Positions 9,381-41,377 of a DNA stretch of 64,000 nucleotides are shown piece by piece. A program made the translations under genes and the position numbers. The first letter of the stretch is position 1, and each line of letters begins with the position of its first letter. Origin of the DNA: Gammaproteobacteria bacterium (GTDB lineage Bacteria > Pseudomonadota > Gammaproteobacteria > Ga0077536); the NCBI GenBank assembly GCA_040220855.1, contig JAVJVZ010000023.1, positions 22,102-86,101 on the forward strand, in the 5' to 3' direction. The notes under the pieces are model-generated. The model did no database searches and was not told the DNA's origin. It was given only the letters and a program-made list of their open reading frames with translations.

Positions 9381-9593
9381 ATGCGCCTGTCCCGTAATGG
9401 CTATTACGTCGAACGTTACGTCAAGTGCGACAATTGTGGCGTGCTGATCTACGACGACGGCATGGCAGCGACGATCGCGGGTGACGACGGCCTGTACTGC
9501 TCCCAGTGGTGTATCGACTGGGCGACGGCGCGCGCCCGCGGCATCGAGGAGCCGCGCATACCGCTACCGCGCGTGCCACGCGAGCGCGGCTGA
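9381..9593 (+). CDS. Small hypothetical protein with a 4-Cys zinc-ribbon-like motif
   Basis: 70 aa, CDNCG ... CSQWC. Plausible RBS. Confidence 0.4.
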   Translation: MRLSRNGYYVERYVKCDNCGVLIYDDGMAATIAGDDGLYCSQWCIDWATARARGIEEPRIPLPRVPRERG

Positions 9594-9609
9594 CGACGCC
9601 GGGCACGGT

Positions 9610-10161
9610 TCACGCCGAGCCCGGCGCTTCGCCAGCGGGGACAACGGCCTCGGCGAGCCGGCGCGCGCGGGCGATGTTCTCCACGTGCAGCGTGCGCATC
9701 CAGCGCAAGTCGGCAATCAACGCGGCATCGGCGAGGCGCGGCAGCGCCGCGTCGATGCGACGCACCACCCAGGCCTGGCCGCGGTCGAGCAGCGCCAGGC
9801 GAGCCGGGAAATCGGGCGCCGCTGCGAGGCGTTCGAGGAACGCGCCCGGCGGGCCGGCGGCGTCGCTACCGTAACGCCTGAGCTGCGCAACCAGCATGCT
9901 GCAGCAGCGTCCCTCGTCGCGCGCCAGCGCGACCAGGACGCCCCGCGCCGTGGCGGGACCCGCGGGCAGGCACAGCTCCGTGATGCCCCGCGCGCCGGCG
10001 CGCTCGGCGGCCAGCAGCTCGGCGAGCAACGCGCGTATCTCCGCGGCGTCGGCGAGGCCCCGCCACGCCGGGTCGACATCGTCGAGCGCGCAGGGAGACG
10101 AAGCGACCTCGGCCGCGCCGTGGTGGTCGGGCACGCGTTCGCCGCCATGCCGATTGCTCAT
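9610..10161 (-). CDS. Hypothetical protein (possibly DUF6306 / ferritin-like helical protein)
   Basis: 183 aa, helical. The motif LLAELLAAERAGAR...LALLDRGQAWVVRRI recalls the DUF6306 family. The stop overlaps the MTHFS start by 4 nt, suggesting an operon. Confidence 0.5.
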   Translation of the reverse strand: MSNRHGGERVPDHHGAAEVASSPCALDDVDPAWRGLADAAEIRALLAELLAAERAGARGITELCLPAGPATARGVLVALARDEGRCCSMLVAQLRRYGSDAAGPPGAFLERLAAAPDFPARLALLDRGQAWVVRRIDAALPRLADAALIADLRWMRTLHVENIARARRLAEAVVPAGEAPGSA

Positions 10162-16121: not shown

Positions 16122-16438
16122 TAGAACCGGTCTCACAATTAATCGTGGGTGCGTTGGCGCCCAAAAAGCTCGGCCCCAAGAAGATCGTTGGTGGGGACAC
16201 AGTGCGCAGGGAATAGTGGTTCTATTGCCAAGCACTGTAACGCCGTAGACGGGCCCCATGAAAATGTTGGTGGGGGGGGGCAACCCGAAGGGCCGATGGC
16301 TGCCAAATCCATCCTTTCTGGCGCGCATTTCCGCGTTGCTCGTCACTCACACGCTGAGCATCCTATTCGCTCCTCGCGCCTTGAACTGCGCGAAAGCAGC
16401 CGTCGGCGCAACCACGATTAATTGTGAGACCGGTTCTA
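16122..16438. mobile_element. MITE-like non-autonomous element with 27-bp perfect terminal inverted repeats and no coding capacity
   Basis: TAGAACCGGTCTCACAATTAATCGTGG at 16122-16148 is the exact reverse complement of 16412-16438. The interior is about 260 bp, lower in GC than its surroundings, and contains only short overlapping ORFs. Confidence 0.6.
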
Positions 16439-16535
16439 GTCACTCTGGCGTGGTATCGCGCCGCGATCAAGCCGCGCCCGAGAACGGCAGGCGCACTGGT
16501 TACAATCGCGCCGACGTCGCGCAGGAGTCCGCTTG

Positions 16536-22459: not shown

Positions 22460-22634
22460 GCGCGCATCCGTGCGACGGCGGCGAGGCCGCACCGCGGCGG
22501 CGGGGCGCGGGCAGCACCCACCGTCGCACGACCCCGTTTGCGTGTCGCGGTGCCGCGGCTCAGCCGCGTCGCGTTGGCCCGACTCGCGCAATGCCACGCG
22601 TCGGCCGACCACGAGACAACGAGCAATTGCGAAT

Positions 22635-22670
22635 TATATAAACGCAAATGATAATGCGTCGCGTTTATAT
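22635..22670. promoter_or_regulatory. Fur-box-like palindromic element upstream of the TonB-dependent receptor
   Basis: ATAAACGCAAATGATAATGCGTCGCGTTTAT contains an AATGATAAT core inside an 8-bp inverted repeat, in an AT-rich patch of a 70% GC genome. Confidence 0.45.
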
Positions 22671-22672
22671 TC

Positions 22673-25345
22673 TTGCGATTTCCGATGCCCGTGCCGCCAG
22701 CTCCCCGCACCCGTGCACCGCGCCGGCCGACGCTCGGCCCGCGCCGCCCGCGGGCACACCGTCTCGCCGCCATCACCGCCCTTGGTGTGTGGCTCATGGC
22801 GGCCTCCGGCATGGACGCCACGATGGCGGCCGATCGCCTCGATGGCCATGGTGACGGCGAGGCCGTCGACGCCGCGGGCAGGGCGGCGCCGGCACCGGCC
22901 GCGGCAGGCGATGACGACGGTAATAGCGACGCCAACGACGACGGCCGCGATGGCGCTCGCGGCGACAGCGCGCAGCGTCACGCCCCCGGCACGCGCAAGG
23001 TCGAGGAAATCGTCGTCCGCGGGGTCCGGGAGAGCGCCTACGACCCGAACCTCGAACCGACCGATTCGGCCAACCTGCTGGATTTCGAAGATTTGCGCCG
23101 CACGCAATCGCCGGACGTCTTCGACGCCGTGCGCGACCTGCCCGGCGTGAGCGTCGAGGGCGGCCCGCGCACCAGCGGCAAGCGCTTCGCCATTCGCGGC
23201 TTCTCCGACAACGAGGACGTCCTCGTACGCATCGACGGCGTCACGCAGAATTTCGAGAAGTACCGCTACGGCGCCGGCGTCGACATCGAGCCCGAACTGC
23301 TCAAGCAGGTCGCCGTGCACCGCGGCGGCGCGGCCATCACGCAGGGCTCGGGTTACCTCGGCGGCGTGGTCGAGATGGAGACGGTCGACGCTGCCGACCT
23401 GCTCGCGCCCGGGCAGCGCCTCGGCGGGCAGGCCAGGCTCGGCTACCTCAGCAACAACGAGGGCAAGCTCTACTCGGGCAGCGCCTATGCCCGCCCCCTC
23501 GACTTCCTCGATGCGCTCGTCAACGTCACGCGGCGCGATTCGCGCGACTACGAGCTGCCGGACGGCAGCCGCTTCCCCGATTCCGCCGAGGCGCAGACGA
23601 GCGTCCTCGGCAAGCTCGAGCTGTCCTCGGACAGCGCGACCCTCGGTATCAGTCACCGTCGCGCCGAGCAGAGCGGCCAGCAGCCCTTCGACATCACCGG
23701 CGGCATCACGGGCATCGGCGGCCTCGTCCTGCGCGATACCTCGGAAGCGGCCACCGCGCTCCGCTTCGACTGGGACCCGGCCACCGAGTGGGTCGCGCTG
23801 GACGCCACCCTCGGCTTCATCGACAAGCAGGTGATCGATGCCAACAGCGCGATTGCCGGCGTCGACGACGCTGGCAATCCGGTCGGCACCGACCGCTTCG
23901 CCTACCAGATCTGGACCACCGGCATCGGCAACCGCGCGCGCTTCGGGCTCGGCCCGACCCGCCACGAGCTCGCTTTCGGGTGGCAGGGGAACCGCGAGCG
24001 CCGCGTCGCGACGCGCGATAACCTCGCAGGCAACGCGTTCAACCCTGCTCAACCTTCGGGCGAGAAGCGCAGCCACGGCGTCTATGCCCTGCACCGCGTG
24101 CGCTGGGGCGGCCTCACTGTCGAGGGTGGTCTGCGCCGCGACTGGTTCGACATCGCCGCCGGCCCCGCCGAGCGACGCGTGCTGAGCGCCCGCGGCGAAC
24201 CGGACAAGGTGTCCTACGCGCTCGATTCACCGGTCTTCTCGATCGCCTTCGCGCACGGCCCGGCGGAGGTCTTCTACCATTGGGGCGAGAGCTTCCGCGT
24301 GCCGCTCCTGGACGAGCTGTTCCAGCGCGGCAACTTCAGCGCCTGCGTCGAGTTCACCGCATTTGCCCGGGCGCCCACGGCGCCGGTCTTTCCCGCCCTG
24401 CCACCGCAGCCGCAGGTCAGCTTTCCGCCCACGCCACAGCTCGCCGACTTCGGCTTCGACGCCGTGGCGTGGCTTGCCGCGCTCGATGCCTGGAACGCCG
24501 CCGTCGCGCAGGCGACCGCGACGCTGGCGGCCTGGGCCGAGGCCATCGCTGCCCTGCGCGCGGGCTACGACCGCGACCTCGACGCGTTCGAGGACGCGCT
24601 CGCCGCCTACCTCGACGACCCGAACGCGGATCGCAACGCGATGTGCGGCGACCGTTACCGCCCGGAGACCGCGACGACGCGCGAGGCCGGCTTCGTCCTC
24701 GACTTCGACAGCGTACTGCACGAAGCGGACGCGTTGTCGCTCAAGTTCACCTACTACGACATTCGCGTCGGCAATCTCATCGAGTCCATCTATGAAGACA
24801 GCGTGACCGGCGCCATCGGCCAGCCCGGCCGCGAGGTTCGCAAGGGCTTCGAGGTCGAGGCTCGCTACGACCAGCCCCGCTGGTACGCGCGCTTCGCGCT
24901 GACCACGCTCGACGGTTACATCAAGTACGGTTTTTTCGCGAACAATGTCGATCCCGATATCGCGCGCTTCACCGATCCGGGACGCTTCGAGCTGTTCAAC
25001 GTGCCAGCCGACAATTTCAACCTGACGCTCGCGGTGACGCCGCGTCACGATCTCGAAATAGGCCATCGCCTGCGCGTATTCGCGCCGCGCCTCGTCACCG
25101 TCGGCTTCGAACCCGGCTGCGTCGGCACGCTGTTCACCAACCCCGTGTGCAGCGTCTTCGGCGAGCAGCACGGCTACATGACGTCGAACTTCTTCCTGAG
25201 CTGGCGGCCGCACCCGTCGGTCGACCTGCGCCTGACCGTCGATAACGCCCTCAACAAGGAATTTCAGAATACCGGCTTCGGGGGCGCGCTCGGCGCCATC
25301 GCGCCGGGCCGGGACATCCGCGCCAGCGTGCTGCTGCGCTACTGA
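22673..25345 (+). CDS. TonB-dependent outer-membrane receptor (probable heme/iron-complex receptor)
   Basis: Plug-domain TonB-box-like EEIVVRGV, beta-barrel repeats, an FRVP (FRAP-like) motif. Adjacent to a hmuTUV operon. The true start may be an internal Met. Confidence 0.85.
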   Translation: MRFPMPVPPAPRTRAPRRPTLGPRRPRAHRLAAITALGVWLMAASGMDATMAADRLDGHGDGEAVDAAGRAAPAPAAAGDDDGNSDANDDGRDGARGDSAQRHAPGTRKVEEIVVRGVRESAYDPNLEPTDSANLLDFEDLRRTQSPDVFDAVRDLPGVSVEGGPRTSGKRFAIRGFSDNEDVLVRIDGVTQNFEKYRYGAGVDIEPELLKQVAVHRGGAAITQGSGYLGGVVEMETVDAADLLAPGQRLGGQARLGYLSNNEGKLYSGSAYARPLDFLDALVNVTRRDSRDYELPDGSRFPDSAEAQTSVLGKLELSSDSATLGISHRRAEQSGQQPFDITGGITGIGGLVLRDTSEAATALRFDWDPATEWVALDATLGFIDKQVIDANSAIAGVDDAGNPVGTDRFAYQIWTTGIGNRARFGLGPTRHELAFGWQGNRERRVATRDNLAGNAFNPAQPSGEKRSHGVYALHRVRWGGLTVEGGLRRDWFDIAAGPAERRVLSARGEPDKVSYALDSPVFSIAFAHGPAEVFYHWGESFRVPLLDELFQRGNFSACVEFTAFARAPTAPVFPALPPQPQVSFPPTPQLADFGFDAVAWLAALDAWNAAVAQATATLAAWAEAIAALRAGYDRDLDAFEDALAAYLDDPNADRNAMCGDRYRPETATTREAGFVLDFDSVLHEADALSLKFTYYDIRVGNLIESIYEDSVTGAIGQPGREVRKGFEVEARYDQPRWYARFALTTLDGYIKYGFFANNVDPDIARFTDPGRFELFNVPADNFNLTLAVTPRHDLEIGHRLRVFAPRLVTVGFEPGCVGTLFTNPVCSVFGEQHGYMTSNFFLSWRPHPSVDLRLTVDNALNKEFQNTGFGGALGAIAPGRDIRASVLLRY

Positions 25346-26211: not shown

Positions 26212-26237
26212 GAGCGGGCGGCGAACTGAGTGTAAGT

Positions 26238-26290
26238 AAGAATGATTCGTACTACTAGTATTCTTTTTCGTGATTGCGCACAATTGCGCG
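26238..26290. promoter_or_regulatory. AT-rich divergent promoter with inverted repeat AAGAAT-N16-ATTCTT and tandem ATTGCG half-sites (candidate Fur/iron operator)
   Basis: aagaatgattcgtactactagtattctt ... gattgcgcacaattgcgcg lies between the VPLPA protein (-) and the hutZ-like gene (+). Confidence 0.35.
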
Positions 26291-26334
26291 GGCGCCGCGC
26301 CGGCGCCCCGACCCCCATCGACCAGGAGCCGACG

Positions 26335-26862
26335 ATGAACGCACCGACCACCCCGCTCGAGGACGTTGCCCGCGAGGCGCGCGGATTTCGCGATAGCTTT
26401 CGCACCCTCCATCTCGCGACCGCCGGCGCCGACGGCACGCCGAGTGCGAGCTATGCGCCTTTCGCGCTGTCGAGCGATGACCGGTTCCAGGTCTACGTCA
26501 GCGAGCTGGCCGCCCACACCGCGAACCTTTTGCGCGGCACACCGGTGAGTGTGCTGATCATCGAGTCCGAGCATGACGCCGCGCACCTCTTCGCCCGCAA
26601 GCGCCTGACGTTCACCTGCGCCCCGCAGCACTGTCCGCGCGGCAGCGATGCGTTCGAAGCGGTGCTCGCCGGTCTCGAAGAACGCTTCGGCGAGTTCATG
26701 GGCTACCTCCGTACCCTCACCGACTTCCATGCGTTCACGCTAGAAGCGCGCCACGCGACCTACGTGCGCGGCTTCGCCCAGGCTTACGAGTTCCCGGACG
26801 GTCGCCTCGAGACCATTCGTCACGTCAACGACCGCGGCCACGCCGCCGACGACGAGAACTGA
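26335..26862 (+). CDS. Heme-utilization protein HutZ-like (pyridoxamine 5'-phosphate oxidase split-barrel family)
   Basis: 176 aa, PNPOx-like fold pattern. Position as first gene of the hmuTUV operon. AGGAG RBS. Confidence 0.7.
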   Translation: MNAPTTPLEDVAREARGFRDSFRTLHLATAGADGTPSASYAPFALSSDDRFQVYVSELAAHTANLLRGTPVSVLIIESEHDAAHLFARKRLTFTCAPQHCPRGSDAFEAVLAGLEERFGEFMGYLRTLTDFHAFTLEARHATYVRGFAQAYEFPDGRLETIRHVNDRGHAADDEN

Positions 26863-26866
26863 GCCG

Positions 26867-27721
26867 ATGCGCCTGCGTCTTCTGTCCACCGCCGGTCTCG
26901 CGCTCGCGCTCGCGCTCGGACTGCTCGCACCGCTGGCAACCGCCGCCGAGCGCATCGTCGCCGTCGGCGGCGCGGTGACGGAGATCGTCTTCGCGCTCGG
27001 CGCCGGTGACCGCCTCGTCGCCGTCGATACGACCAGCCGCTTTCCCGACGCGGCCACGCGCCTGCCGGACGTCGGCTACCTGCGCACGCTGTCGGCCGAA
27101 CCCATCCTCGCCTTGCGGCCCGACCTCGTGCTGCATGCCGCGGATGCCGGTCCACCCGAGGCGCTCGCGCAGCTCCGCGCAGCCGGTGTGCCGCTCGTCG
27201 CCATCCCGGATGCGCCGAGCGCGGCGGGTGTCGAGGACAAGATTCGCGCCACCGCCGAGGCGCTCGGTCAGGCCGACGCGGCAACCGGGCTGATCGCGCG
27301 CCTGCATCGCGAGCTTGCCGCCGCGCGCGCGGCGATCGACGCCGGCGCCACGCCGCCCAGGGTGGTGTTCGCCATGCAGTTCGACGCCGGATCGGTGCTC
27401 GCGGCCGGCCGCGAGACCGCGGCAGACGCCATCATCCGGCTCGCCGGCGGCCGCAACGTCGCCGGTGACTTCACGAGCTATAAGCCGATCGGCGCCGAAG
27501 GTCTCCTCGTCGCTCGCCCCGACGTCGTGGTCACCGTCGACCGCGCGGTGGCACAGTTCGCTCGCCCGGCCGATGCTCTCGCACTGCCGGCGCTGCGCCT
27601 GACCCCGGCCGCCGCGACCGGGCGCATCGTCGTCATGGATCCCCTGTTGCTGCTCGGTTTCGGGCCGCGTCTCGGCGAGGCAGTGACGACGCTCGCCGGC
27701 GCGCTGCACGCGGTGCCGTGA
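26867..27721 (+). CDS. hmuT: Hemin ABC transporter periplasmic substrate-binding protein (HmuT/ChuT-like)
   Basis: Signal peptide, class III (FecB-like) SBP architecture. Start is 5 nt after the hutZ stop. Confidence 0.8.
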   Translation: MRLRLLSTAGLALALALGLLAPLATAAERIVAVGGAVTEIVFALGAGDRLVAVDTTSRFPDAATRLPDVGYLRTLSAEPILALRPDLVLHAADAGPPEALAQLRAAGVPLVAIPDAPSAAGVEDKIRATAEALGQADAATGLIARLHRELAAARAAIDAGATPPRVVFAMQFDAGSVLAAGRETAADAIIRLAGGRNVAGDFTSYKPIGAEGLLVARPDVVVTVDRAVAQFARPADALALPALRLTPAAATGRIVVMDPLLLLGFGPRLGEAVTTLAGALHAVP

Positions 27722-27764: not shown

Positions 27765-28892
27765 ATGACACCCGCCGACGATCACCTCCTCGCCGCGGGT
27801 GCGCCCGCCGCCGCCGCGATACGGGCGCGGTACCTCGCGCTACCCACCCGCCGCATGCTCGTGCTCGCTGCCTGTTTCGCCTGCGCGCTCGCCGCGATAC
27901 TCGCCAACCTTGCGCTCGGTCCCGTCGTGGTGCCGCTCGCGAGCGTGCTGCGCATCCTGACCGGCACGCACGAGGCCGTCGGCGCGGACGGCGGCGTCGC
28001 CGCGAGCGTGGTGCTCGACCTGCGCGCGCCGCGCGTGGTGCAGGGACTGCTCGTCGGCGCCGCGCTCGCGGTCTCCGGGGCAGCCTTCCAGGGCCTGTTC
28101 CGCAACCCGCTCGCCGATCCCAGCCTCGTCGGCATCTCGGCCGGGGCCGCGACAGGCGCGGTCGGCTACATCGTGCTCGGCAGTGCGCTCGGCAGTGCGT
28201 TCGCGCCGCTCGCCGCGATCCCGCGCATGGCCGCGCTGCCGCTCGCGGCGATCGGCGGGGCGCTCGCCGCCGCGGCAGCGCTCTACCGGCTGGGCCGCCG
28301 CGGCAGCGACCTCGACATCGCGACCCTGCTGCTCGCGGGCATCGCCATCACCGCGCTATGCCTGTCTGCCTCGGGCCTGCTCATCTTCGTCAGCGACGAC
28401 GAGCAGCTGCGCGAGCTGAACTTCTGGTCCCTCGGCTCGCTCGCCCGCGCGCACTGGCCGGTGCTGTTGCCGGCACTGCCCTGGCTGCTCGGCGCAACCG
28501 CCTGGCTGGTGGCACGCGCCGGCGTTCTGAACGCACTCGCCCTCGGCGAAGCCGAGGCCTGGCACCTCGGCTACCGCGTAGAGCGGGTCAAGCTCGAGGT
28601 CGTCGCGCTGACCGCGACCGCGGTCGGCACCGCAGTCGCCATCGCCGGCGTGATCGGATTCATCGGTCTCATCGTGCCGCACCTGCTGCGGCTCGCGATC
28701 GGCGCAGACAACCGCTACGTCCTGGCGGGCGCCGCCGCGCTCGGCGGCGCGCTGCTGCTGGTGGCCGACCTGCTCGCACGCACGCTGGTAGTACCGGCGG
28801 AACTCCCGATCGGCATCCTGACCAGCCTGCTCGGCGGACCGTTCTTCCTGTGGCTCATGCAACGCCAGCGCTGCGCGCCCGCACTGCCGTGA
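27765..28892 (+). CDS. hmuU: Iron/hemin ABC transporter permease (FecCD family, HmuU-like)
   Basis: About 10 TM helices and FecCD conserved segments (LALGEAEAWHLGY..., TSLLGGPFFLWLM). Confidence 0.85.
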   Translation: MTPADDHLLAAGAPAAAAIRARYLALPTRRMLVLAACFACALAAILANLALGPVVVPLASVLRILTGTHEAVGADGGVAASVVLDLRAPRVVQGLLVGAALAVSGAAFQGLFRNPLADPSLVGISAGAATGAVGYIVLGSALGSAFAPLAAIPRMAALPLAAIGGALAAAAALYRLGRRGSDLDIATLLLAGIAITALCLSASGLLIFVSDDEQLRELNFWSLGSLARAHWPVLLPALPWLLGATAWLVARAGVLNALALGEAEAWHLGYRVERVKLEVVALTATAVGTAVAIAGVIGFIGLIVPHLLRLAIGADNRYVLAGAAALGGALLLVADLLARTLVVPAELPIGILTSLLGGPFFLWLMQRQRCAPALP

Positions 28893-29686
28893 TCGCGACC
28901 CACGCCCTCGGCTACGACGTCGCTGGCCGCGCGCTGCTCGCGGACTGCGAGCTCGCCTTCACGGGCGGCCGCGTGACCGCGGTCCTCGGCCCCAACGGCG
29001 CCGGCAAGTCGACCCTGCTGCGCCTGCTGACGGGTGAGCGGCGTCCGAGCCACGGCGAGGTGCGCGTCGACGGGCGCGCCCTGGACACCTGGACACCCGC
29101 AGCGCTCGCGCGGGTGCGGGCAGTCGTCACCCAGTTCAACCACGTCGCGTTCCCGTTCACGGCCGCCGAGATTGTTGCGCTCGGTCGCGCCCCGTGGCGG
29201 CGCAGCGATACGCGCGCCGCCCGCGCGGCGGCCGTCGAGGCCGCGCTCGCGCGGCTCGAGGTCGGGCATCTCGCGGGGCGTCTCTACCCGACCCTGTCCG
29301 GCGGCGAGCAGCAGCGGGTGGCCATCGCGCGCGCGCTCGCCCAGCTCGACTGGCCACGGGCCGGCGGCGCGCGCTGCCTGCTGCTCGACGAGCCGAGCGC
29401 GAGCCTCGACCTGCATCACCAGCACGCGCTCATGGCGTTGCTGCGCGAGCTCGCGACACAGGGCGTGACGGTGGTGGTCGTCCTGCACGACCTGAACCTG
29501 GCGCTCGGCTATTGCGACGAGGTGGTATTACTGCGCGAGGGCCGCGTCGCCGCCACCGGCGCCACCGCCGCCACCCTCACCCCGGCGCTCGTCGAGGCCG
29601 TCTACCGCGTCGCCGCCGAACAGTTCGAAACCCCCGACGGTGGCGTCTTTCTCGTCGCCCGTCGCGCCGTGGAGTACGCCGCATGA
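28889..29686 (+). CDS. hmuV: Hemin ABC transporter ATP-binding protein (HmuV-like)
   Basis: Walker A GPNGAGKST, ABC signature LSGGEQQRV, Walker B LLLDEP. GTG start overlapping the hmuU stop (GTGA). Confidence 0.85.
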   Translation: MIATHALGYDVAGRALLADCELAFTGGRVTAVLGPNGAGKSTLLRLLTGERRPSHGEVRVDGRALDTWTPAALARVRAVVTQFNHVAFPFTAAEIVALGRAPWRRSDTRAARAAAVEAALARLEVGHLAGRLYPTLSGGEQQRVAIARALAQLDWPRAGGARCLLLDEPSASLDLHHQHALMALLRELATQGVTVVVVLHDLNLALGYCDEVVLLREGRVAATGATAATLTPALVEAVYRVAAEQFETPDGGVFLVARRAVEYAA

Positions 29687-30330
29687 ATCCCGATCCGCAC
29701 ACGACCGCACGCCGCCTGCTGCTCGGCAGCGCGTCGGCCCGCTTTACCGCCGTTGCGCGCGGCAGCGCCGCGTCGACGCCTTTCTGCCTCGCGCCCGACG
29801 GCACGCCCCTGCTCGAGGCGACTGCCGGTGCCGCCGTCAGCATCGCGCTCGGCGCCGCGGGCGACACATTCGCACTCGTCCTGCGCGGACGGGCCATCCC
29901 GCTCGCCGCGGCCGAGGACGCGAGTCTCGCGCGCTGGCGGCGACACCATCCGGCGCATGCGCGCCCGCCCGTGCGCCTCGCCGAGCCGCATGCCCTGCTG
30001 TGCGCCGCGGGCGGGCAGCATGCGCTGGACTACTTTGCGCTGGTGCGTGATGCGCTGTTCGACTGGGCTAGCGAGACGCGCATGGTCGAGCACATGAACG
30101 ACGATCACCTCGACGCGCTGCGCGATTACTGCGCACACGCCGGGGTCTCCTGCACACGCGTGGCGCCGCTGATGGCCGGCGTCGACGTCGACGGCTTCTT
30201 CGTGCTTGCCGACGAGGGGGCGGCTCGCTTCGATTTCCCGGCGCCCTGCCCCAGCCCGCTCGCGGTGCGCAAGGCGCTCGTCGCCCTCGCGCAGGCGGCG
30301 CGCGCAGCTGAGCGCGCAGACGGCGATTGA
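29683..30330 (+). CDS. DUF2470-domain heme-utilization-associated protein (HugZ N-domain-like)
   Basis: MNDDHLDALRDY motif typical of DUF2470. ATG overlaps the hmuV stop (ATGA). Confidence 0.6.
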   Translation: MNPDPHTTARRLLLGSASARFTAVARGSAASTPFCLAPDGTPLLEATAGAAVSIALGAAGDTFALVLRGRAIPLAAAEDASLARWRRHHPAHARPPVRLAEPHALLCAAGGQHALDYFALVRDALFDWASETRMVEHMNDDHLDALRDYCAHAGVSCTRVAPLMAGVDVDGFFVLADEGAARFDFPAPCPSPLAVRKALVALAQAARAAERADGD

Positions 30331-30332
30331 GT

Positions 30333-31040
30333 TCAGCGCCCGGCGGTGAGGAAGACGGGTTCGCGTGCTGGCCGCCCGCTCGCGGGATCGTAGTGGCAGC
30401 GCGCACAGATGGCCGGCGCAGGCAGCGCTGCGGGCTGTCGCGCGGTGCCGAAATCGGCGCTCGCGGCGAGCCGACCCGCGTCGTCGTACACGAAGAAGTC
30501 GACCGCCGTCGAGGTCGGCGCCCGCCGCCGCACGATCTCGGTTTCGCGCACGCTACCGTCCGGATTGAGCGTTTCGGCAACCGACATGCGCCACTGCCGA
30601 CCCGGATTGCGGTAGATGCGCCGCGGCAGGTGCTTGGCCCGGCTCGGCGAGAGGAGTTCGCTCGACCATTCACGGTAGCCGCTGGCCGCGGCGAACGCGG
30701 ACAGTGAGTCCGGCAGCACGCGGGCGGCGGCCCGCGCCACCAGGGCGGCCGCAGCATCGGCCGTGCGCGGCGCATGGCGCAGGCGACGCAGCACGCGGGC
30801 GGCTGCGCGCCGCTCGCCGGAGAGCAGCGCGAGCGTGCCCGGCGCGAGCCGTCCACCAGCGCGCACCGCCGCGTCCCCGAACAGAAACCCGAGCCAGTGC
30901 ACGCTGCAGTCGACCGCGTAGCGGCCGCCGGCCACGGCCCCTTCGCGCGGCACGAGCAGCCACCCCCGCGGCGCCTGCAACAGCACGGCGGCGAGCAGGA
31001 TGGCCGCGAGCATGCTTGCACGGTGTGCGGACAGACGCAT
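30333..31040 (-). CDS. Hypothetical secreted protein with a single C-terminal CxxCH motif (possible heme-binding protein)
   Basis: Signal peptide MRLSAHRASMLAAILLAAVLLQAP, then ...AICARCHYDPASG near the C-terminus. The N-terminal 142 codons of ORF 30333..31466 were rejected as an extension. Confidence 0.45.
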   Translation of the reverse strand: MRLSAHRASMLAAILLAAVLLQAPRGWLLVPREGAVAGGRYAVDCSVHWLGFLFGDAAVRAGGRLAPGTLALLSGERRAAARVLRRLRHAPRTADAAAALVARAAARVLPDSLSAFAAASGYREWSSELLSPSRAKHLPRRIYRNPGRQWRMSVAETLNPDGSVRETEIVRRRAPTSTAVDFFVYDDAGRLAASADFGTARQPAALPAPAICARCHYDPASGRPAREPVFLTAGR

Positions 31041-31221
31041 ACAGCTCACCGTCCCCGGGCCGCGTTCGTTCACGGGCGCCCCGCGCACGTGCGGGGCGGA
31101 GGTACGGCACCGCACCCGGGAACGCCGCCGCTGCCACCGGCGCGTCCGACTCCCGGGGGTGCCGCAGAAGGGAGCGGCAGCGGCAGGAAGGCGCCGCGAA
31201 CCCGCGTCCGGGCGCTGAACG

Positions 31222-31959
31222 TCACGACGAGCTCGCGCCCCGGACAGCGCTATGGCGCCGCGCCAGGAGACCGGCGAGCACCGGCGCGCACAGCCACGCC
31301 GCGCCGGGCAGGGGAACCGGCGCGATGTCGACTGCCGCCTGCGCGAAGGACATGTGCGGGCCGCCCTGCAAGACGAACTCGTAGCTCGCGGCGGGTGCGT
31401 CGAGCGTCCACAGGAACAGCACCTGCTCGAGCAGCACGGTGCCGAACGCCGAGGCGAACGCGGCATCCTGGAAGGTCACCACCTTGCTGTCCCATTGGGC
31501 GCCGTTGAGCGTCACCGGGGCCACGGCGTTACCGGCGTCGTCGGCTTCCAGCGGGGTGCCCCAGGTCTCGGTCTGCAGCGCGACGACGACCGGACCGTCC
31601 AGCGGACCGGCGCTGCCGTCGACCGCGATGGTCAGCACCTGCAGGCTGCCGAAGTTGTAGAGATTGCCGGTGGTGCCGGTCACGAACGTGCCGGCATTCC
31701 AGCCGAAGCTGGCCGCCGGCGTGCCGGCGCTGCCGACGTCCGGCGCCACGGGATTGGCCGCACCGAAGTCGTCCCATTCGGCGTAGAGGGTGCCAGCGTC
31801 GCCGCGCGTCCAGCCACCCCAGTCGGCGCTGTCCGGGGTTGCGAAGCCGAAACCGGGTGCATACGGATCGGGGCCGTTGGCGAAATCGGCCAGCGCCAGC
31901 GGGCTGGTCAACAGCATCACGGCGCCAGCGACGGCGGAAATGGTTTGCTTGTTCTTCAT
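31222..31959 (-). CDS. Secreted hypothetical protein with a C-terminal VPLPA-CTERM-like (PEP-CTERM family) sorting signal
   Basis: Signal peptide MKNKQTISAVAGAVMLLTSPLALA. C-terminus VPLPGAAWLCAPVLAGLLARRHS. Paralog of 25393..26211. Confidence 0.7.
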   Translation of the reverse strand: MKNKQTISAVAGAVMLLTSPLALADFANGPDPYAPGFGFATPDSADWGGWTRGDAGTLYAEWDDFGAANPVAPDVGSAGTPAASFGWNAGTFVTGTTGNLYNFGSLQVLTIAVDGSAGPLDGPVVVALQTETWGTPLEADDAGNAVAPVTLNGAQWDSKVVTFQDAAFASAFGTVLLEQVLFLWTLDAPAASYEFVLQGGPHMSFAQAAVDIAPVPLPGAAWLCAPVLAGLLARRHSAVRGASSS

Positions 31960-32029
31960 CTCGAGTCACCCTCCTCAGGCGTGGTTGGCGCTTGCGGCGA
32001 CGGCAATTCCGGGCCGCTGAACGCGGAGT

Positions 32030-32048
32030 GACTCTAAACGATAATTAT
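32030..32048. promoter_or_regulatory. Fur-box-like 19-mer GATAATTATTCTTATTAGC upstream of the second VPLPA-CTERM gene
   Basis: About 13/19 match to the GATAATGATAATCATTATC consensus. Lies in an AT-rich patch immediately upstream of the gene start. Confidence 0.35.
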
Positions 32049-32158
32049 TCTTATTAGCAACTATGAGAAATGCGAGGTATTTCCGTGCGCGCCCGCCGGC
32101 CCCGCCCGGCCAGTCCACACGTCCGACCACCCGGGCCCGGGCCGCGCAAGCCGGCCGC

Positions 32159-33301
32159 TCACTGCAGATAGTTGCCGATCACCTCGCGCAGCCATGCCCG
32201 CGTCGCGGCTGCGTCGTAGGGCGTGCCATCGGCGTAGCTCGCCGCCCGCGCAAAGAGCCGCGCGAACAGCGGCTGACCATCGACACGTGCGGCAAGCGCA
32301 AACTCCGCGCGCGCCGCGAGGAGCTCGGCCCAGGTCGCGCGGACGTCGGCCCAGAATGGCGCCGTCGCCGCCCAGTACGCGTCGCCGGCCGAGAAATCCT
32401 GCCCGCTGACGTGCTCGTAGCGGTTCAGGCCACGTTCCTCGGCGAGCGGTGTGCCGTCGCTCGGATCACCCGCACGGTGGCGCAGCTTGCGATTGTGCTG
32501 CTCGTGCACCCAGCCCGTCGGCTGCACCACCAGGCGGTGGGTACCGAAGAGGCGGTCGTAATCGTCGCGCACGCTGAACTCGCGCCGCGGCAGCGGCCGC
32601 CCCATCGGCTCGCTGGTCCAGGTGGCGTCGCTCGCGCGATGCTGCCAGCGGCCGCGCGCGGCATAACGTGGCGCATCGTCGACCTGGTAGACGGTCTGCG
32701 TCCAGGTGCCCGCGACGGCCTCCTCGATGATTTCGCGCCAACGCCCGTCGCCACCGTAGGCGAGGCGCGTGGGGGCTTCGTAACGCCAGTCCTGCCGCCA
32801 GTGTTTCATGACGACGGGTTCGGGTTCGCCGGCGACGAACATCACCAGCAGGTGCTGCAGGCTGACGAAGCCCGGTTCGTCCGTGAGCACGTAGATGACT
32901 TCCGTGCCCCACGACCGGTAAGGGCGCGCCGGCTCGAAACCCGGGCTGAAGCCGAGCGTCTCGATGAACTCGAAGCTCGCACGGTACTCGCCGGCCAGGG
33001 CGCGAATGGCCAGGCGATCGCGTGCCTCGCCACGCGCTTCGGTCTCCTGCAGGGCCTGCCAGGCGGCGCCCGGCGTCGTCGCCAGCGTCACCGGCGCGCC
33101 GCGCGTCGTGCCCCCGCGCGGCGTCAGCGCACACCGTTCGCCAAGCATCCAGGAAAACACGTACGGTGGGCGCTCACAGGTCTCGGCTGTGGGCGTCGCG
33201 CCTGCGTACGGCGCGAGCAGCGCAAATGCGACGACCACCGCCGCGCAGAGCGGCGTCGTCAGGCCGGGGTGACGGGTAAAGCGGATTCGCTCGGTGCGCA
33301 T
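32159..33301 (-). CDS. Hypothetical secreted protein (380 aa)
   Basis: Signal peptide after MRTERIRF. No recognisable family. Fur-box-like element in its promoter. Confidence 0.5.
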   Translation of the reverse strand: MRTERIRFTRHPGLTTPLCAAVVVAFALLAPYAGATPTAETCERPPYVFSWMLGERCALTPRGGTTRGAPVTLATTPGAAWQALQETEARGEARDRLAIRALAGEYRASFEFIETLGFSPGFEPARPYRSWGTEVIYVLTDEPGFVSLQHLLVMFVAGEPEPVVMKHWRQDWRYEAPTRLAYGGDGRWREIIEEAVAGTWTQTVYQVDDAPRYAARGRWQHRASDATWTSEPMGRPLPRREFSVRDDYDRLFGTHRLVVQPTGWVHEQHNRKLRHRAGDPSDGTPLAEERGLNRYEHVSGQDFSAGDAYWAATAPFWADVRATWAELLAARAEFALAARVDGQPLFARLFARAASYADGTPYDAAATRAWLREVIGNYLQ

Positions 33302-33398
33302 TGGACATCTCCAGGAAATACGGGGTGCAGCTTCACGACAGCGTGGCACGGTGTTCCGTGCCGGCATACGCGGCGGCTGTCGGAATGGACTGGGCTAC

Positions 33399-33429
33399 TT
33401 ATTGCGAATGATTATCGATTGCAATAATC
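33399..33429. promoter_or_regulatory. Fur-box-like palindrome TTATTGCGAATGATTATCGATTGCAATAA in a divergent promoter
   Basis: 7-bp inverted arms (TTATTGC/GCAATAA) around an AATGATTAT core. Shares ATTGCGAAT-N-ATTAT with the site at 22625-22645. Confidence 0.45.
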
Positions 33430-33944: not shown

Positions 33945-34283
33945 TCAGGGGGACGCCGTGGCGCTGAAGGTGTAGCTGCGCTCGACGCGCGCCACGCGCA
34001 CCGCGTAGCCGGCATACCAGTGCGCGCGCCCGCGTTGCTGGGCTGCGCGGTGCTCGGCGTGGCGCTTCCAGGCCAGGATCGAGGCCTCGTCGCGCCAGTA
34101 GGAAACGACGATCTCGCCGCTCGCCTCGACCGCCGCCTCGACGCCGAGGAAACCCGGCATGTCGGCGACGAGTTCGAGCATGCGTGCCACCGTCTCGCCG
34201 TAGTCGCGCGTGTCCGCGCCCGGCGTCGCGGTGAAGATCACGGCGTAATAGGGCGCCTCGAGGCCCTCGAGCACGGCTGGCAT
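33945..34283 (-). CDS. Antibiotic-biosynthesis-monooxygenase (ABM) domain protein
   Basis: 112 aa ferredoxin-like ABM pattern (YYAVIFT...EIVVSYWRDEASILAWKRHAEH). Confidence 0.65.
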   Translation of the reverse strand: MPAVLEGLEAPYYAVIFTATPGADTRDYGETVARMLELVADMPGFLGVEAAVEASGEIVVSYWRDEASILAWKRHAEHRAAQQRGRAHWYAGYAVRVARVERSYTFSATASP

Positions 34284-34423
34284 GACGTTCTCCGCAGGAT
34301 CTTTGCTGGAGCTTAGCGCGCGCTACCCACGCTGCCCAGGCCGCGTGGAACCTCGCGGCGGGCCCGATGGGCTGCGCGCGTCCGCGCGCGCTACACTGCA
34401 TGCTCCCCGGTCGGAGCAAAGCA

Positions 34424-35206
34424 ATGACGCGCATCCTCACCGCCCTCGTCGTCCTCGTCGCCGGTCACACCGCCACGGCACAGCAATCCGCCGTCGACGT
34501 GTGGGAGACGCTGCTGCGTCCACACCACTTTCCGGAGGTCGAAATCATCGAGGACGGCAGCGTCATCGAACTCTCCACGCCTTACCGTTCCGAGGACGCC
34601 GCCTTCACCCCGGTACGCATCAAGGCGCGCATTCCGCAGACGCCGGAACGCTACATCGAAGCCATCCACCTGTTCGTCGACCTGAACCCCGAACCCAAGG
34701 TCGGCACCTTCACCTTCACCCCCGCGGCCGGCAGCGCCGACCTCGCATTGCGCATCCGCATCGACAAGTACACCGACGTGCGCGCGGTCGCGGTCCTCAA
34801 TACCGGCGAGCACTACATGGCGAAGAGCTACGTCAAGGCCCAGGGCGGCTGCGCGATCCCGGTCGCCATCGACTACAAGCAGGCGATGTCCGGCCTCGGG
34901 AAGGTTCAGCTGCGCACCCTCGACGGTGACGACGCGGACGGCATCGCGACCCAGTTGCGCGTCCGTCATCCGAACTTCACCGGCATGCAGATGGACTACA
35001 AGATCTACGCGGTGCGGCCGGCGCACTACGTCAACTCGATCCGCGTATTGCTGAACGGCGAGCCGGTGATGACGGCCGAGACGGGCATCTCGATTAGCGA
35101 GGATCCGAGCTTCCGCTTCTTCCTCGCGCCGCAGGCGAGTGGCGAATTGAGCGCGGAGATCACCGACACCAAGGGCAACAGCTGGACCGAGAAGCTGACG
35201 CTCTGA
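34424..35206 (+). CDS. SoxY/SoxZ-like fused sulfur-carrier protein (quinoprotein-dehydrogenase-associated SoxYZ-like carrier family)
   Basis: Signal peptide. SoxY-like N-half with a KAQGGCAIP carrier-cysteine loop, and a SoxZ-like C-half (SEDPSFRFFL). Confidence 0.55.
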   Translation: MTRILTALVVLVAGHTATAQQSAVDVWETLLRPHHFPEVEIIEDGSVIELSTPYRSEDAAFTPVRIKARIPQTPERYIEAIHLFVDLNPEPKVGTFTFTPAAGSADLALRIRIDKYTDVRAVAVLNTGEHYMAKSYVKAQGGCAIPVAIDYKQAMSGLGKVQLRTLDGDDADGIATQLRVRHPNFTGMQMDYKIYAVRPAHYVNSIRVLLNGEPVMTAETGISISEDPSFRFFLAPQASGELSAEITDTKGNSWTEKLTL

Positions 35207-37506: not shown

Positions 37507-37636
37507 AGTCCCCGGCTACCCCGTCCGGGGCAGGACCGGTCACGCGTCGGCGCCCCTGCTCAAGCCTGCCCGCGCCGCGCCGCCATAGCCCGAGACGCAC
37601 CGAGAACGTGCACGCGTCCCGCGCAACGGGACAGGG

Positions 37637-40600
37637 ATGTCAGGGCGGCGACCAACGGCATGCCCTGCGGATGGTCATGGCTACTGGACCGGAGCAACGC
37701 GCTTGGACGACAAGGTCAGGATCTCGGAATACCTGTTCGCAGCGGCCTTCGAGGCCGTCGACGACGCCATCGTCATTCTCGACGCCGACGGCGACGTCGT
37801 GCACCTGAACCGCCACGCGGCGACCCTGCTCGGCTGCGCCCAGGGCACGGCCCGTGGCCAGGGTTGGCGCCAGGTACTGCGACTCGCCGGCGGCAACGGT
37901 GCGCCGACGCTGGCGCTGACCGCCGCCGGCCTTCTCCCGCCTGGCCTTCACGTGGTTGCCATCGAGGGGCGCCCGGGGTTGTGCGAAATTGCCGTCAGCG
38001 CGCTCGACGACCCGGTGCCCGGGACATTGCTGCGCATGACCGCGGCGGAGACCACGGGCGTTTCGACCACCCATCAGCAATCGCTGCTGCAGCTGGCGCT
38101 GGAGAATGGCCGCCAGGGGCTGTGGGAGTGGGAGCCGCAAGCGGACCGCCTGCGCTTCTCGCGTGAATGGTACGCCTTGTTCGGCCACGCACCCGGTTCG
38201 GTGCGCACGTTGCGCGGCGACCTGCAGCAATTGCTGCACCCCGACTCGGTCGCCGCCGGCCGTGCCGCCCTGTTGAGCATGCTGCGCGGCGAACGCGAGG
38301 ATTTCGAAGTCGAACACCGCCTGCGCCACGCCGCCGGGCACTGGATCGACATCCTCTCACGTGGTCGCTGCGTGGCGCGCGACGCGACCGGAGAGGCCAT
38401 CCTGGTGGTCGGCACGCACGTCGACATCACTGCGCTGAAGGACACCGAACAACGTCTGCTCGAATCACGCCGGCTGCTCGAGACCGTCATCGACGCCTTT
38501 CCACAGCGCGTGTTCTGGAAGGACGCCGATGGCCGCTACCTGGGCGCCAACGGCCGCTTTGCCCGCGATGCCGGACACGACAAACCCTCGTCGCTGCTCG
38601 GTCTCGGCATCGACGCCGTCGACTGGCCGATGCCGCTCGCCGCGGTCAATGCAGAGGAACGCGAGTTGCTTAGCGGCGCGGTCGACAAGGTCATGGTGCG
38701 CCGGCGCCTGAGCCCGGTGCGCGGCGAACCGTTCTGGGCCGAGACGATCAAGGTCGCGATCCCGGGCGCTGACGGCCGGCCCATCGGCGTGCTCGGCATG
38801 TACGACGACATCACCGAGCGACGCGAGCGCGAACTGCACATGCGCACCATCGCCGAGGCCTTCACCGCGGCCGGCGAGACGCGCCTGCTCGATGCGCTGG
38901 CGCGCGCCAGCGCAGTGCTCGCCGGCGCCGACTACGCCTTCGTCGCGCGGCTCGATGCCGATGGAACGCAGGCCCAGGCGAGTGCCTGCCACCCCCTCGA
39001 CGCGCCCTTGCGGGACGCCGTCTACGCGCTCGCCGGCACGCCCTGCGCAAGCGCCGTCAACGGTGCTGGCTGCGCCATCGAGCACGGTGCCGCGCGCGCC
39101 TATCCTGACGACCCGCTGTTGAGAGAACTCGGCATCGAGGGCTACGTCGGCCGGCGGCTCGAAGCCGCCGACGGCCGTGCCGTCGGCCTGTTCGTGCTCC
39201 TGTTCCGCAGTCGGGTCGCACATCTCGAACACGTCGACACCGTCATCGACATCTTCGCCGGGCGCGCCACCGCGGAACTCGAGCGCGAACGTGCGCTGAA
39301 CGATCTGCGCACCTCCGAACAGCGCCTCGAAACCGCCATCGCGCACGGTGGCCAGGACGTGTGGGAGTGGTCGCCTGCCGACGACAGCCTGAGCATCATC
39401 GGCACCGGCTTCGGCGGCCTCGGCATCGACAGCGGGGCCGCCCTGCGCGGTCGCATCCATCCCGACGACCTTGCAGTACAGAAGCGTGCCCTCGCCGACT
39501 ACTATCATGGCCGCAGCGAATACTACGAGTACGAGGCGCGCATCCGGCATGCCGCCGGCGACTACCGCTGGATGCTGGTACGGGGACAGACGGCCACGCG
39601 CGACGCCGCGGGGCGCGTCGCGCGCATCATCGGAACGGTCACCGACATCTCCGCCCTCAAGCAGGCGCAGCACGCGGCAGAGTCCTCGCAGCAGTTCCTC
39701 TCACTGGTGATCGACACCGTGCCGCAGGCAATCTTCTGGCAGGACCGGTCATTCCGCTACCGTGGCTGCAACCAGCGCTTCGCCGAACTCGCCGGCGTCG
39801 CCGCGCCCGACGACCTGGTCGGGCTCGACGATCACGCATTGTGGTGGCACGAAGCGACCCCGACGTTCCAGGCCGAGGACCAGGCACTCATCGACGGCTC
39901 GCTGCCCAGCGTGCGCGGCGAGCAGGCGTTGCGCCTGCCTGACGGCAGCGACAAGTGGTTCGAGACGGTGAAGGTCCCGATGCGCGGCGCCGACGGCACC
40001 ATCATCGGCGTGCTCGGCGCGGTCCACGACATCACCACGCGCCGCCAGGCCGAAGACGCCGCGCGCCACCTGGCCTGTTTCGATCCCCTCACCGGACTGC
40101 CCAACCGGCGCGACTTCACCGCGCGGCTGGAGGCGAGCCTGGCGCGCGCGCGGCGCCATCGCCGCAAGGGGGCGCTGCTGTTCATCGACCTCGACCAGTT
40201 CAAGCAGATCAACGATACCCTGGGACACTCGGTAGGTGACGCACTGCTGCAGGCAGTCGCCAAGCGCCTCGAGAACGTGACCCGCCAGGAGGACACCGTG
40301 GCCCGGCTCGGTGGGGACGAGTTCGTCGTCCTGCTGCCGGCAGACGTCGACGGTAACAGCGAGTGCGCCCGGCACGCACAGCGCGTTGCAGACAAGATTC
40401 ACGCCACCCTGCGCCAGCCGTTCCAGTTCGAGCACCACCAGTTCCACGTCACCCCGACCATCGGCATCTCGCTGTTTCCGGATGGCGACAAGGACGTCGA
40501 CGACGTCCTCAAGGAGGCCGATACCGCGATGTACAGCGGCAAGGCCGCCGGCCGCGGCGTGACCCGCTTCTTCCGTCGCGAGATGGAGGAAGCCGCGCAG

Positions 40601-41377
40601 CGCCGGCTGCGCATCGAAGGCGATCTGCGCAAGGCCATCGTGCGCGAAGAGTTCCAGCTCTGTTTCCAGCCACAGGTCGACGCCGCCGGTTACGTCTCCG
40701 GCGTCGAGGTCCTGCTGCGCTGGCAGCATCCCGAGCACGGCACCATCTCGCCGGCCGATTTCGTCCCCATCGCCGAGGAACGGGGGCTCATTGTCGACAT
40801 CGGGCGCTGGGTGCTCGACGCCGCGTTCGACCGCATGCGCGACTGGCTCGAGCATGGCCGCGCCGACGTCGGCGAGATTGCCATCAACGTCAGCTCACGC
40901 CAGTTCCGCTGCGAGGATTTCTACAATGACGTCGAGCGCCTGCTGCTTGCCCACCGTATCCCGCCGCAGCGGGTGGTCTTCGAGATCACCGAGGGCACCG
41001 TGGTCGAAGACGTCGAGGCGACCATCGCCATCATGGAACGCCTGCGTCGTCTCGGCATTCGCTTCGCCATCGACGATTTCGGGACCGGTTACTCCTCCCT
41101 CGCCTACCTCAAGCGCCTGCCCATCGACCAGCTCAAGATCGACCGTTCGTTCATCTCCGACATCGGTCGCGACAGCAACGACGAAGTGATCTGCCAGACC
41201 ATCGTCGCGATGAGCCAGCACCTGCGCCTGCAGACCATCGCGGAAGGCGTGGAGACCGCCGAGCAGTACAACTTCCTGACCCGCCTGCGCTGTCACGGCT
41301 ACCAGGGCTACCTGTTCCTGCCGCCGAGCGACGAGGCGACCTTCCTCGATTTCTGCGCGCGCGCCAATCGGCGCTGA
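37637..41377 (+). CDS. Multidomain signalling protein: PAS/PAC x3-4, GAF, GGDEF (diguanylate cyclase) and EAL (c-di-GMP phosphodiesterase)
   Basis: Repeated PAS/PAC blocks, GGDEF active site (RLGGDEFVVLL), EAL motifs (EITEG, DDFGTGYSSL, QGYLF). Confidence 0.85.
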   Translation: MSGRRPTACPADGHGYWTGATRLDDKVRISEYLFAAAFEAVDDAIVILDADGDVVHLNRHAATLLGCAQGTARGQGWRQVLRLAGGNGAPTLALTAAGLLPPGLHVVAIEGRPGLCEIAVSALDDPVPGTLLRMTAAETTGVSTTHQQSLLQLALENGRQGLWEWEPQADRLRFSREWYALFGHAPGSVRTLRGDLQQLLHPDSVAAGRAALLSMLRGEREDFEVEHRLRHAAGHWIDILSRGRCVARDATGEAILVVGTHVDITALKDTEQRLLESRRLLETVIDAFPQRVFWKDADGRYLGANGRFARDAGHDKPSSLLGLGIDAVDWPMPLAAVNAEERELLSGAVDKVMVRRRLSPVRGEPFWAETIKVAIPGADGRPIGVLGMYDDITERRERELHMRTIAEAFTAAGETRLLDALARASAVLAGADYAFVARLDADGTQAQASACHPLDAPLRDAVYALAGTPCASAVNGAGCAIEHGAARAYPDDPLLRELGIEGYVGRRLEAADGRAVGLFVLLFRSRVAHLEHVDTVIDIFAGRATAELERERALNDLRTSEQRLETAIAHGGQDVWEWSPADDSLSIIGTGFGGLGIDSGAALRGRIHPDDLAVQKRALADYYHGRSEYYEYEARIRHAAGDYRWMLVRGQTATRDAAGRVARIIGTVTDISALKQAQHAAESSQQFLSLVIDTVPQAIFWQDRSFRYRGCNQRFAELAGVAAPDDLVGLDDHALWWHEATPTFQAEDQALIDGSLPSVRGEQALRLPDGSDKWFETVKVPMRGADGTIIGVLGAVHDITTRRQAEDAARHLACFDPLTGLPNRRDFTARLEASLARARRHRRKGALLFIDLDQFKQINDTLGHSVGDALLQAVAKRLENVTRQEDTVARLGGDEFVVLLPADVDGNSECARHAQRVADKIHATLRQPFQFEHHQFHVTPTIGISLFPDGDKDVDDVLKEADTAMYSGKAAGRGVTRFFRREMEEAAQRRLRIEGDLRKAIVREEFQLCFQPQVDAAGYVSGVEVLLRWQHPEHGTISPADFVPIAEERGLIVDIGRWVLDAAFDRMRDWLEHGRADVGEIAINVSSRQFRCEDFYNDVERLLLAHRIPPQRVVFEITEGTVVEDVEATIAIMERLRRLGIRFAIDDFGTGYSSLAYLKRLPIDQLKIDRSFISDIGRDSNDEVICQTIVAMSQHLRLQTIAEGVETAEQYNFLTRLRCHGYQGYLFLPPSDEATFLDFCARANRR

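Follow-up and report, generated by a model that had tools for sequence, protein, structure and literature searches.

The fold shared by the cytochromes P460 and c′-beta has been described as unique to two small protein groups, and work on the proteins that adopt it has centred on hydroxylamine oxidation and on the chemistry of NO and N2O (2025 review, PMC11928373). In NeP460, Arg44 forms a salt bridge with a propionate and Glu96 is the proton acceptor, and the arginines equivalent to Arg44, Arg50 in McP460 and Arg46 in NeCP-beta, cap the iron (PMC11928373). The same review distinguishes 'halfway-house' proteins, whose function it regards as unresolved (PMC11928373). Features of the superfamily are an export signal and a single CxxCH motif near the C-terminus, whose His is the proximal ligand of the haem. 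By functional analogy only, EfeB of the EfeUOB system can also be compared with the protein described here, being likewise an exported haem protein that is apparently co-regulated with iron acquisition genes. EfeB is a DyP peroxidase with non-covalent haem b that is exported by the Tat pathway, and its fold is unrelated to that of the CxxCH protein.

The gene considered here lies on the minus strand at 30333..31040 of a 64,000-nucleotide stretch of gammaproteobacterial DNA (the window), next to a haem-uptake operon. The best explanation of its product, which we hold to be moderately likely, is an exported single-haem-c protein, divergent and P460/c′-beta-like, that forms a probable iron-starvation pair with a VPLPA-CTERM protein. 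Confirmation would extend the sequence space and the biological settings known for the P460/c′-beta fold and would provide a testable physiological context for the 'halfway-house' members. The finding by itself addresses no long-standing open question, and its importance would rise if the Lys/Arg/Glu pocket described below proved to be a new haem environment, or if a role in iron acquisition were shown.

The gene and its exported product

The minus-strand frame ending at 30333 is a real coding frame and its re-picked start, an ATG at 31040, is reasonable, because between about 31040 and 30333 GC at third codon positions (GC3) stays at 0.83-0.97, a pattern that is lost further upstream. Second-position GC in the same frame is about 0.55-0.7; the coding pattern is gone upstream of about 31060, and beyond 31222 the signal is that of the VPLPA-CTERM gene's frame. 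Translation from 31040 gives a short basic N-terminus, MRLSAHRAS, before a hydrophobic stretch, as in the homologues P0003-P0005. The coding sequence, delimited by GC3 frame analysis and the homologues P0001-P0006 (stop codon 30333-30335), specifies 235 amino acids and not the 236 of the first-pass annotation, whose choice of start is borne out by GC3 and by the homologue N-termini. The product is 100% identical to the NCBI MAG protein RKL32_15840, which is annotated from Met10 and hence without the basic N-terminal region.

The N-terminus reads MRLSAHRAS-MLAAILLAAVLLQA-PRG. Residues 1-23 (30972..31040, minus strand) comprise a basic n-region and a hydrophobic helix, found by sequence inspection and placed at residues 3-22 in an AF2 model, and may serve as a Sec signal peptide or remain uncleaved as a signal anchor. 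The signal peptide proposed earlier is retained as an export-signal-like N-terminus, but its cleavage is doubtful, and a signal anchor is possible, because a proline occupies +1 of the AQA/LQA site. The protein would then be either soluble in the periplasm or membrane-anchored. An export signal or lipobox is found at the start of most full-length family members, the N-terminus being strongly hydrophobic in 95 of 155 members and a lipobox-like site being present in 18 of 155. Residues 24-105 (30726..30971, minus strand) form a mostly helical region in the AF2 model (m1c03fb1a89cf), where model confidence is lower (pLDDT 51-87), and have no counterpart in solved P460/c′-beta proteins.

An invariant haem attachment motif

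The C-terminal part of the protein carries a c-type haem attachment motif, C212-A-R-C215-H216 (codons 30393..30407, minus strand). The single motif reported earlier (AICARCHYD) is present, with C212 encoded at 30407-30405 and H216 at 30395-30393; it occupies the stretch 19-23 residues before the C-terminus, H216 lying 19 residues from it, in keeping with the near-C-terminal motif of the superfamily. Domain libraries do not recognise the protein: Pfam and NCBIfam scans of the query returned no family, and an NCBIfam scan of 137 family members gave nothing recurrent. A scan of GTDB genomes with the single protein gave no match, and with an alignment of close homologues it gave one species representative only (JAUIFX01). 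Only six close homologues, 59-100% identical, were detected by a word-indexed search; each comes from a gammaproteobacterial MAG or metagenome and carries C-x-R-C-H-Y-D. With the family profile this search added only 2 further proteins. An exhaustive profile search, covering 1.84 billion representatives, returned 248 at E<=1e-3 and 108 at E<=1e-10. The region common to this family is the C-terminal stretch of about 125 residues, query positions ~103-228.

The motif is kept in all 154 aligned family sequences, down to about 20-30% identity, and among the sequences listed it is missing only from P0048, an N-terminal fragment made by an insertion. Besides C212, C215 and H216, the invariant positions are E168 and P209, the latter three residues ahead of CxxCH. 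Near-invariant residues are R140 and G189 (each in 153 of the 154 sequences), E166 (152), K136 (151), F197 (149), F182 (148), S133 (145), Y185 (143) and T167 (141). No conserved Met or second His was found in the 154-sequence alignment. Conservation of the CxxCH in orthologues, proposed earlier as a check, is therefore clear, and the suggestion that the motif is coincidental is ruled out by its invariance.

The product can almost certainly be counted among the proteins with covalently bound haem c. The machinery for cytochrome c maturation would link the haem to C212 and C215, and H216 would serve as the proximal iron ligand. The earlier proposal of a periplasmic haem-binding protein is well supported by the invariant motif, the export signals and the predicted P460/c′-beta-like fold.

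A separate observation concerns ten longer members of the family (376-438 aa; P0054, P0088, P0092, P0094, P0101, P0104, P0121, P0144, P0150 and P0154), which share a conserved extension of ~50 residues past CxxCH (…F.V..PS…L.L……W.D…C…). This extension suggests a distinct architecture inside the family.

Resemblance to the cytochrome P460/c′-beta fold

An AF2 model built from 7 sequences was unusable (pLDDT 40). With a 137-sequence alignment the model reached pLDDT 85.7 and pTM 0.81, with pLDDT above 90 across the conserved C-terminal domain common to the whole family (residues 106-228; 30357..30725, minus strand). In this model, the N-terminal helix (3-22) is followed by a mostly helical region to about residue 120, by five antiparallel strands (126-130, 140-144, 152-158, 164-172 and 180-185), by a small hairpin and by a helix (210-216) that bears CxxCH. 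The C-terminal ~125 residues would therefore combine a five-stranded antiparallel sheet with a following CxxCH helix, which is the P460/c′-beta architecture.

Searches of solved structures gave no matches of weight: Foldseek of the model against the PDB found none at E<1 (best E = 1), a sequence profile search of the PDB found no P460 and no meaningful match, and a PDB search with the family member P0056 found nothing. A conceivable reading is that CxxCH, in an exported beta-sheet protein, binds a metal or forms a redox-active dithiol, the P460 likeness being generic beta-sheet similarity; we regard this as very improbable. In a Pfam scan of 137 members at E<=1, PF16694 (Cytochrome_P460) recurred as a weak match in 15, and any other family in 3 or fewer. 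These matches span the last strand, beta5 ('GNWxFxxY'), together with CxxCH; no member reaches the gathering score of 27 bits, the best being 19.6 bits (E 1.3e-3), and the query itself has no PF16694 match. Among the 25 weak Pfam families listed for the 137 members, PF16694 is the sole c-type cytochrome family.

The family domain was also compared by hhalign with 120 P460 sequences, all NeP460-like (>=57% identity), which gave a score of 30 (P = 2e-4) over 110 columns. Block-shuffled templates scored 26 on average and up to 35.6, so that the real alignment does not rise above them, and with the CxxCH block removed the real score was 14.2 against 12.3 +/- 2.2 in controls. Because the controls show that the CxxCH block supplies most of the score, the P value was rejected as independent evidence of homology. 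The comparison without the haem motif recovers the same collinear register, at a level that is not statistically significant. Membership of the P460/c′-beta superfamily, to which we assign a good probability, is accordingly argued from the matching fold, from the recurrence of PF16694 in particular and from where the motif lies, and not from profile-profile statistics. The earlier statement that the protein shows no other cytochrome features does not hold, since the C-terminal domain resembles the P460/c′-beta fold in the model and in the weak PF16694 matches. Nor is the protein wholly novel, as had been supposed: the family is most readily understood as a divergent branch within an established haem c superfamily, unannotated and unrecognised by current domain libraries.

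Compared with cytochrome c′-beta (TtCP-beta, 7ead/8brk; McCP-beta, 6hih; NeCP-beta, 7s5o), the protein has an extra helical N-terminal region of ~80 residues, shares only ~16-20% sequence identity, does not reach the PF16694 threshold, and occurs in a putatively iron-regulated setting instead of a nitrogen-cycle or NO-related one. Compared with cytochrome P460 (NeP460, 2je3; McP460, 6hiu; NsP460, 6amg), it lacks a Lys where the cross-link is made, its beta3-beta4 loop is much shorter, and it carries an additional N-terminal domain. In its short beta3-beta4 loop the family resembles c′-beta.

The predicted haem pocket

Residue equivalences for the pocket were taken from the hhalign register, which is not statistically significant, and are given here as predictions. 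In that register, YREW (122-125) aligns with YREW of NeP460 and CxxCH with CAACH; K136 takes the distal 'capping' position of NeP460 Phe41, and R140 the position of NeP460 Arg44 (Arg50 in McP460, Arg46 in NeCP-beta). A155 falls at the cross-linking Lys70 of NeP460, a strand-3 residue that is joined to a meso carbon of the haem, and E168, on strand 4, at Glu96 (Asp102 in McP460), with E166 nearby. The residues concerned are encoded on the minus strand at 30621..30635 (K136 to R140) and at 30537..30545 (E166-T167-E168, part of a near-invariant VRETE strand).

Column 155 of the 154-sequence alignment holds Ala in 136 sequences, Ser in 17 and Lys in none, the flanking columns are likewise without Lys, and strand 3 offers no conserved Lys at any position. 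A cytochrome P460 in the strict sense was rejected, since column 155 is never Lys and the cross-linking Lys is thus missing. With Ala155 at that position, an ordinary haem c would be expected, as in c′-beta. The distal side is probably open, because no Met or second His is conserved, and it would be lined by the polar residues K136, R140, E166 and E168 that are conserved through the family. The pocket predicted here is charged, whereas c′-beta has a Phe/Arg cap in a mostly hydrophobic pocket. As far as the predicted residue assignments go, a charged pocket without a cross-link matches the 'halfway-house' proteins of the review (PMC11928373). It would resemble 'polar-pocket' members that bind or transform small molecules, NO, NH2OH or peroxide among them, unlike an electron shuttle.

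The protein might alternatively be an ordinary electron-transfer cytochrome c, six-coordinate through His216 and Lys136 or another residue and without small-molecule chemistry, exchanging electrons with a partner such as the surface protein encoded alongside it, or in a ferric/haem reductase step of iron acquisition. A single CxxCH in an exported protein would suit this role, near-invariant K136 could be the sixth ligand, and co-expression with an iron-uptake regulon is plausible for such a carrier. However, the fold match is to the ligand-binding, five-coordinate P460/c′-beta class instead of class I cytochromes, none of the 25 weak Pfam matches listed is a class I cytochrome c family, and an invariant Arg with two Glu on strands predicted to face the haem would be unusual for a pure carrier, so that we consider electron transfer unlikely.

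K136 also enters a bolder proposal, in which the invariant Lys at the capping position ligates haem or forms a cross-link in a new way beside the Arg/Glu/Glu pocket. The family would then be a third functional branch of the P460/c′-beta superfamily, a catalytic haem deployed under iron starvation alongside a surface protein sorted by exosortase and contributing to the acquisition of haem or iron; it might process incoming haem or iron by redox chemistry, or defend the envelope against NO or peroxide. We judge the proposal distinctly unlikely.

Under the preferred reading as a P460/c′-beta-like haem c protein, the family would be a sizeable sister group to P460/c′-beta, with at least 248 clusters at 50% identity, almost all metagenomic. 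It keeps the haem motif and appears to join c′-beta-like chemistry, free of a Lys cross-link, with a charged, Lys-containing pocket; in one gammaproteobacterial lineage it apparently lies within an iron-starvation regulon.

Neighbouring genes and predicted operon structure

The CxxCH gene had been placed beside an opposite-strand DUF2470 gene and downstream of a VPLPA-CTERM gene, and this arrangement is confirmed. The DUF2470 gene (29680..30330, plus strand; stop at 30330) is convergent with the CxxCH gene and is the last of a haem-uptake operon that further contains, all on the plus strand, genes for PNPOx_N (26242-26862), an HmuT-like protein (26867-27721), FecCD (27765-28892) and an ABC ATPase (~28901-29686). 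A TonB-dependent receptor gene (22673-25345, plus strand) precedes them. The stop codons of the DUF2470 and CxxCH genes are separated by 2 nt in the window and by 1 nt in the related loci L001, L005, L007 and L008. A gap of 1-2 nt leaves no room for a terminator, and the convergent transcripts must therefore overlap.

On the other side, the VPLPA-CTERM gene (31222..31959, minus strand) encodes a 245-aa secreted protein that is 68-73% identical in five related loci, and is the likely operon partner of the CxxCH gene. The VPLPA-CTERM proteins of the five loci are ~240 aa long and have a signal peptide and a VPLPA-CTERM tail. In the window protein the VPLPA-like motif, hydrophobic helix and basic tail read PVPLPGAAWLCAPVLAGLLARRH, and these elements are kept in the five orthologues. 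The tail is a probable exosortase-type sorting signal, the protein having only a weak NCBIfam PEP-CTERM match (E 0.058). Literature searches on VPLPA-CTERM, and on P460 together with Fur, returned nothing relevant. The called start of the L001 homologue (9086-9868) is probably ~60 nt too far upstream; a conserved ribosome-binding site (AGGAGGGTGACTC) with the ATG common to the other four loci lies at ~9146.

The order [~240-aa] -> [CxxCH] <- [DUF2470 <- ABC <- FecCD <- binding protein <- PNPOx_N] is found in five loci of related MAGs, with the TonB-dependent receptor beyond PNPOx_N, and the genes further upstream vary between loci. In L005 and L007, the CxxCH ATG lies 2 nt after the stop codon of the VPLPA gene, and the N-terminus of P0005 fits the same start. 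No promoter-like site or terminator was found between the VPLPA and CxxCH genes. The five-locus synteny, the 2-nt spacing in L005 and L007 and the lack of a promoter or terminator between the genes support a two-gene operon, predicted to be co-transcribed, in which the CxxCH gene would be the second member after that for the VPLPA-CTERM surface protein.

Across the wider family, no conserved neighbours were found. The distant members P0157, P0053, P0011, P0031 and P0021 have unrelated neighbours, and P0009 adjoins a PNPOx_N/CREG-type gene.

The setting raises the question of a haem-trafficking accessory, which would bind haem non-covalently or transiently through the CxxCH region and pass it to HmuT or a degrading enzyme. 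The tail-to-tail arrangement with the hmuTUV/DUF2470 operon in the five related loci, the neighbour of P0009 and the Fur-like sites common to the whole island, described below, are consistent with such a role. However, the uptake locus is already complete, with receptor, binding protein, permease, ATPase and PNPOx_N/DUF2470 haem-handling proteins, and the CxxCH gene and the uptake operon are convergent and not co-transcribed. The five loci are moreover close relatives, so their shared synteny may be inherited, while the distant members listed above occur in unrelated contexts; and an invariant CxxCH in an exported protein is a signature of covalent attachment and not of reversible binding. A trafficking role is thus quite improbable, and for the haem chaperone suggested in the first-pass annotation the complete uptake operon, the convergent genes and the scattered contexts of distant members leave no support.

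Fur-box-like sites and probable iron regulation

A conserved promoter/operator element, TTGCTAATAAGAATAATTATCGTTTAGAGTCAC (32026..32060, minus strand), is located ~80 nt upstream of the VPLPA gene, and in all five loci the form TATTGCAAATACGAATGATTAGCGTTTAGAGTCAC occurs upstream of that gene. Within it, the 19-mer at 32040-32058 matches the Fur box GATAATGATAATCATTATC at 15 of 19 positions and is flanked by a putative -35 TTGC(A/T)A and a putative -10 TAGAGT. Matches of at least 13/19 number 4 in the window, compared with ~0.3 in block shuffles, the assignment to Fur being made solely by similarity to the consensus. With a matrix built from the Fur-like sites, three further promoters are picked out, those of the TonB receptor gene, of the PNPOx_N/hmuTUV/DUF2470 operon and of the DUF6607 gene. 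The corresponding sites are an AT-rich Fur-box-like site immediately upstream of the TonB-dependent receptor gene (22623..22662, plus strand), with orthologous sites in L001, L005 and L007; a site at the start of the PNPOx_N/hmuTUV/DUF2470 operon (26232..26250, plus strand); and a 13/19 site (33398..33422) upstream of the DUF6607 gene (32159-33367, minus strand). In a window of 69% GC, hardly any AT-rich islands other than these four sites occur between 22 and 34 kb.

The stretch from 22.6 to 33.4 kb looks like one iron-responsive island. Because Fur-like sites mark the promoters both of the gene pair and of the haem-uptake units, the VPLPA/CxxCH pair probably shares one iron-responsive regulon with the haem-uptake system, under putative Fur control. 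The Fur-box-like operator overlaps the predicted promoter, and the pair would be induced by iron starvation together with the adjacent TonB-dependent haem uptake. By virtue of such operators before the pair and the haem-uptake genes alike, the link to haem and iron appears stronger than adjacency would give. Fur-like palindromes also lie just upstream of P0009 and P0011, the next-closest relatives, and more distant members mostly have no Fur-like site upstream. Since distant members have unrelated neighbours and lack a Fur-like site, the iron link may be specific to this lineage.

The DUF6607 gene and a gene for an ABM-domain monooxygenase (33945-34283, minus strand) precede the VPLPA/CxxCH pair, and both are likewise present in L008 (231-1841), but L001, L005 and L007 lack them. 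IsdG-type haem oxygenases belong to the ABM domain family, and the two genes may be further iron or haem genes.

The palindrome and the intergenic spacer

A perfect palindrome had been reported at 31079-31096, upstream of the start. The 18-mer there, CCCCGCGCACGTGCGGGG, is imperfect, its reverse complement being CCCCGCACGTGCGCGGGG; the only perfect part is the 10-bp palindrome CGCACGTGCG (31084..31093), which sits within an 8-bp GC hairpin (31077-31084 / 31091-31098) without a T-tract. CGCACGTGCG occurs twice in the window against 1.09 expected, and at least two copies were found in 29 of 100 shuffles. Perfect palindromes of 10 bp number 208 in the window and those of 18 bp number 5; the site at 31079-31096 is not among the latter. 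CACGTG is absent from the orthologous intergenic regions, the spacer itself being missing in three relatives. Folding of the spacer RNA was no better than that of shuffles (z = -1.17), and the spacer showed neither a T-tract terminator nor a sigma-70-like site and matched nothing in Rfam. An operator or terminator was rejected on these grounds (an imperfect, common and unconserved palindrome, no T-tract, folding as in shuffles), and the palindrome is treated as an ordinary chance occurrence without detectable signal.

The spacer between the VPLPA and CxxCH genes is ~180 nt long and GC-rich in the window and in L008, and L005 and L007 are entirely without it. Between window positions 31123-31184 (minus strand) and L008 ~2800-2870 it is ~70% conserved. 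A long GC-rich hairpin (GCCGCUGCC / GGCAGCGGC) can fold from it; in L008 the 3′ arm contains GGCGGCGGC, by which one U-A pair would become a U-G wobble.

Other features of the region

A MITE-like element of ~300 bp and low GC lies between two genes at 16122-16440 and has the terminal inverted repeats AGAACCGGTCTCACAATTAAT ... ATTAATTGTGAGACCGGTTCT. In L005, a copy of the same family (~9760-10000), ~80% identical in aligned columns, interrupts the CxxCH gene and splits it into the 141-aa P0048 and the 192-aa P0006; the gene can therefore be lost. Near the VPLPA/CxxCH pair, the window also holds a 1262-aa PAS-GGDEF-EAL gene (37589-41377) and a fused SoxY-SoxZ gene (34367-35206), the latter implying periplasmic sulfur oxidation, and hence a capacity for c-type cytochrome maturation, in the organism.
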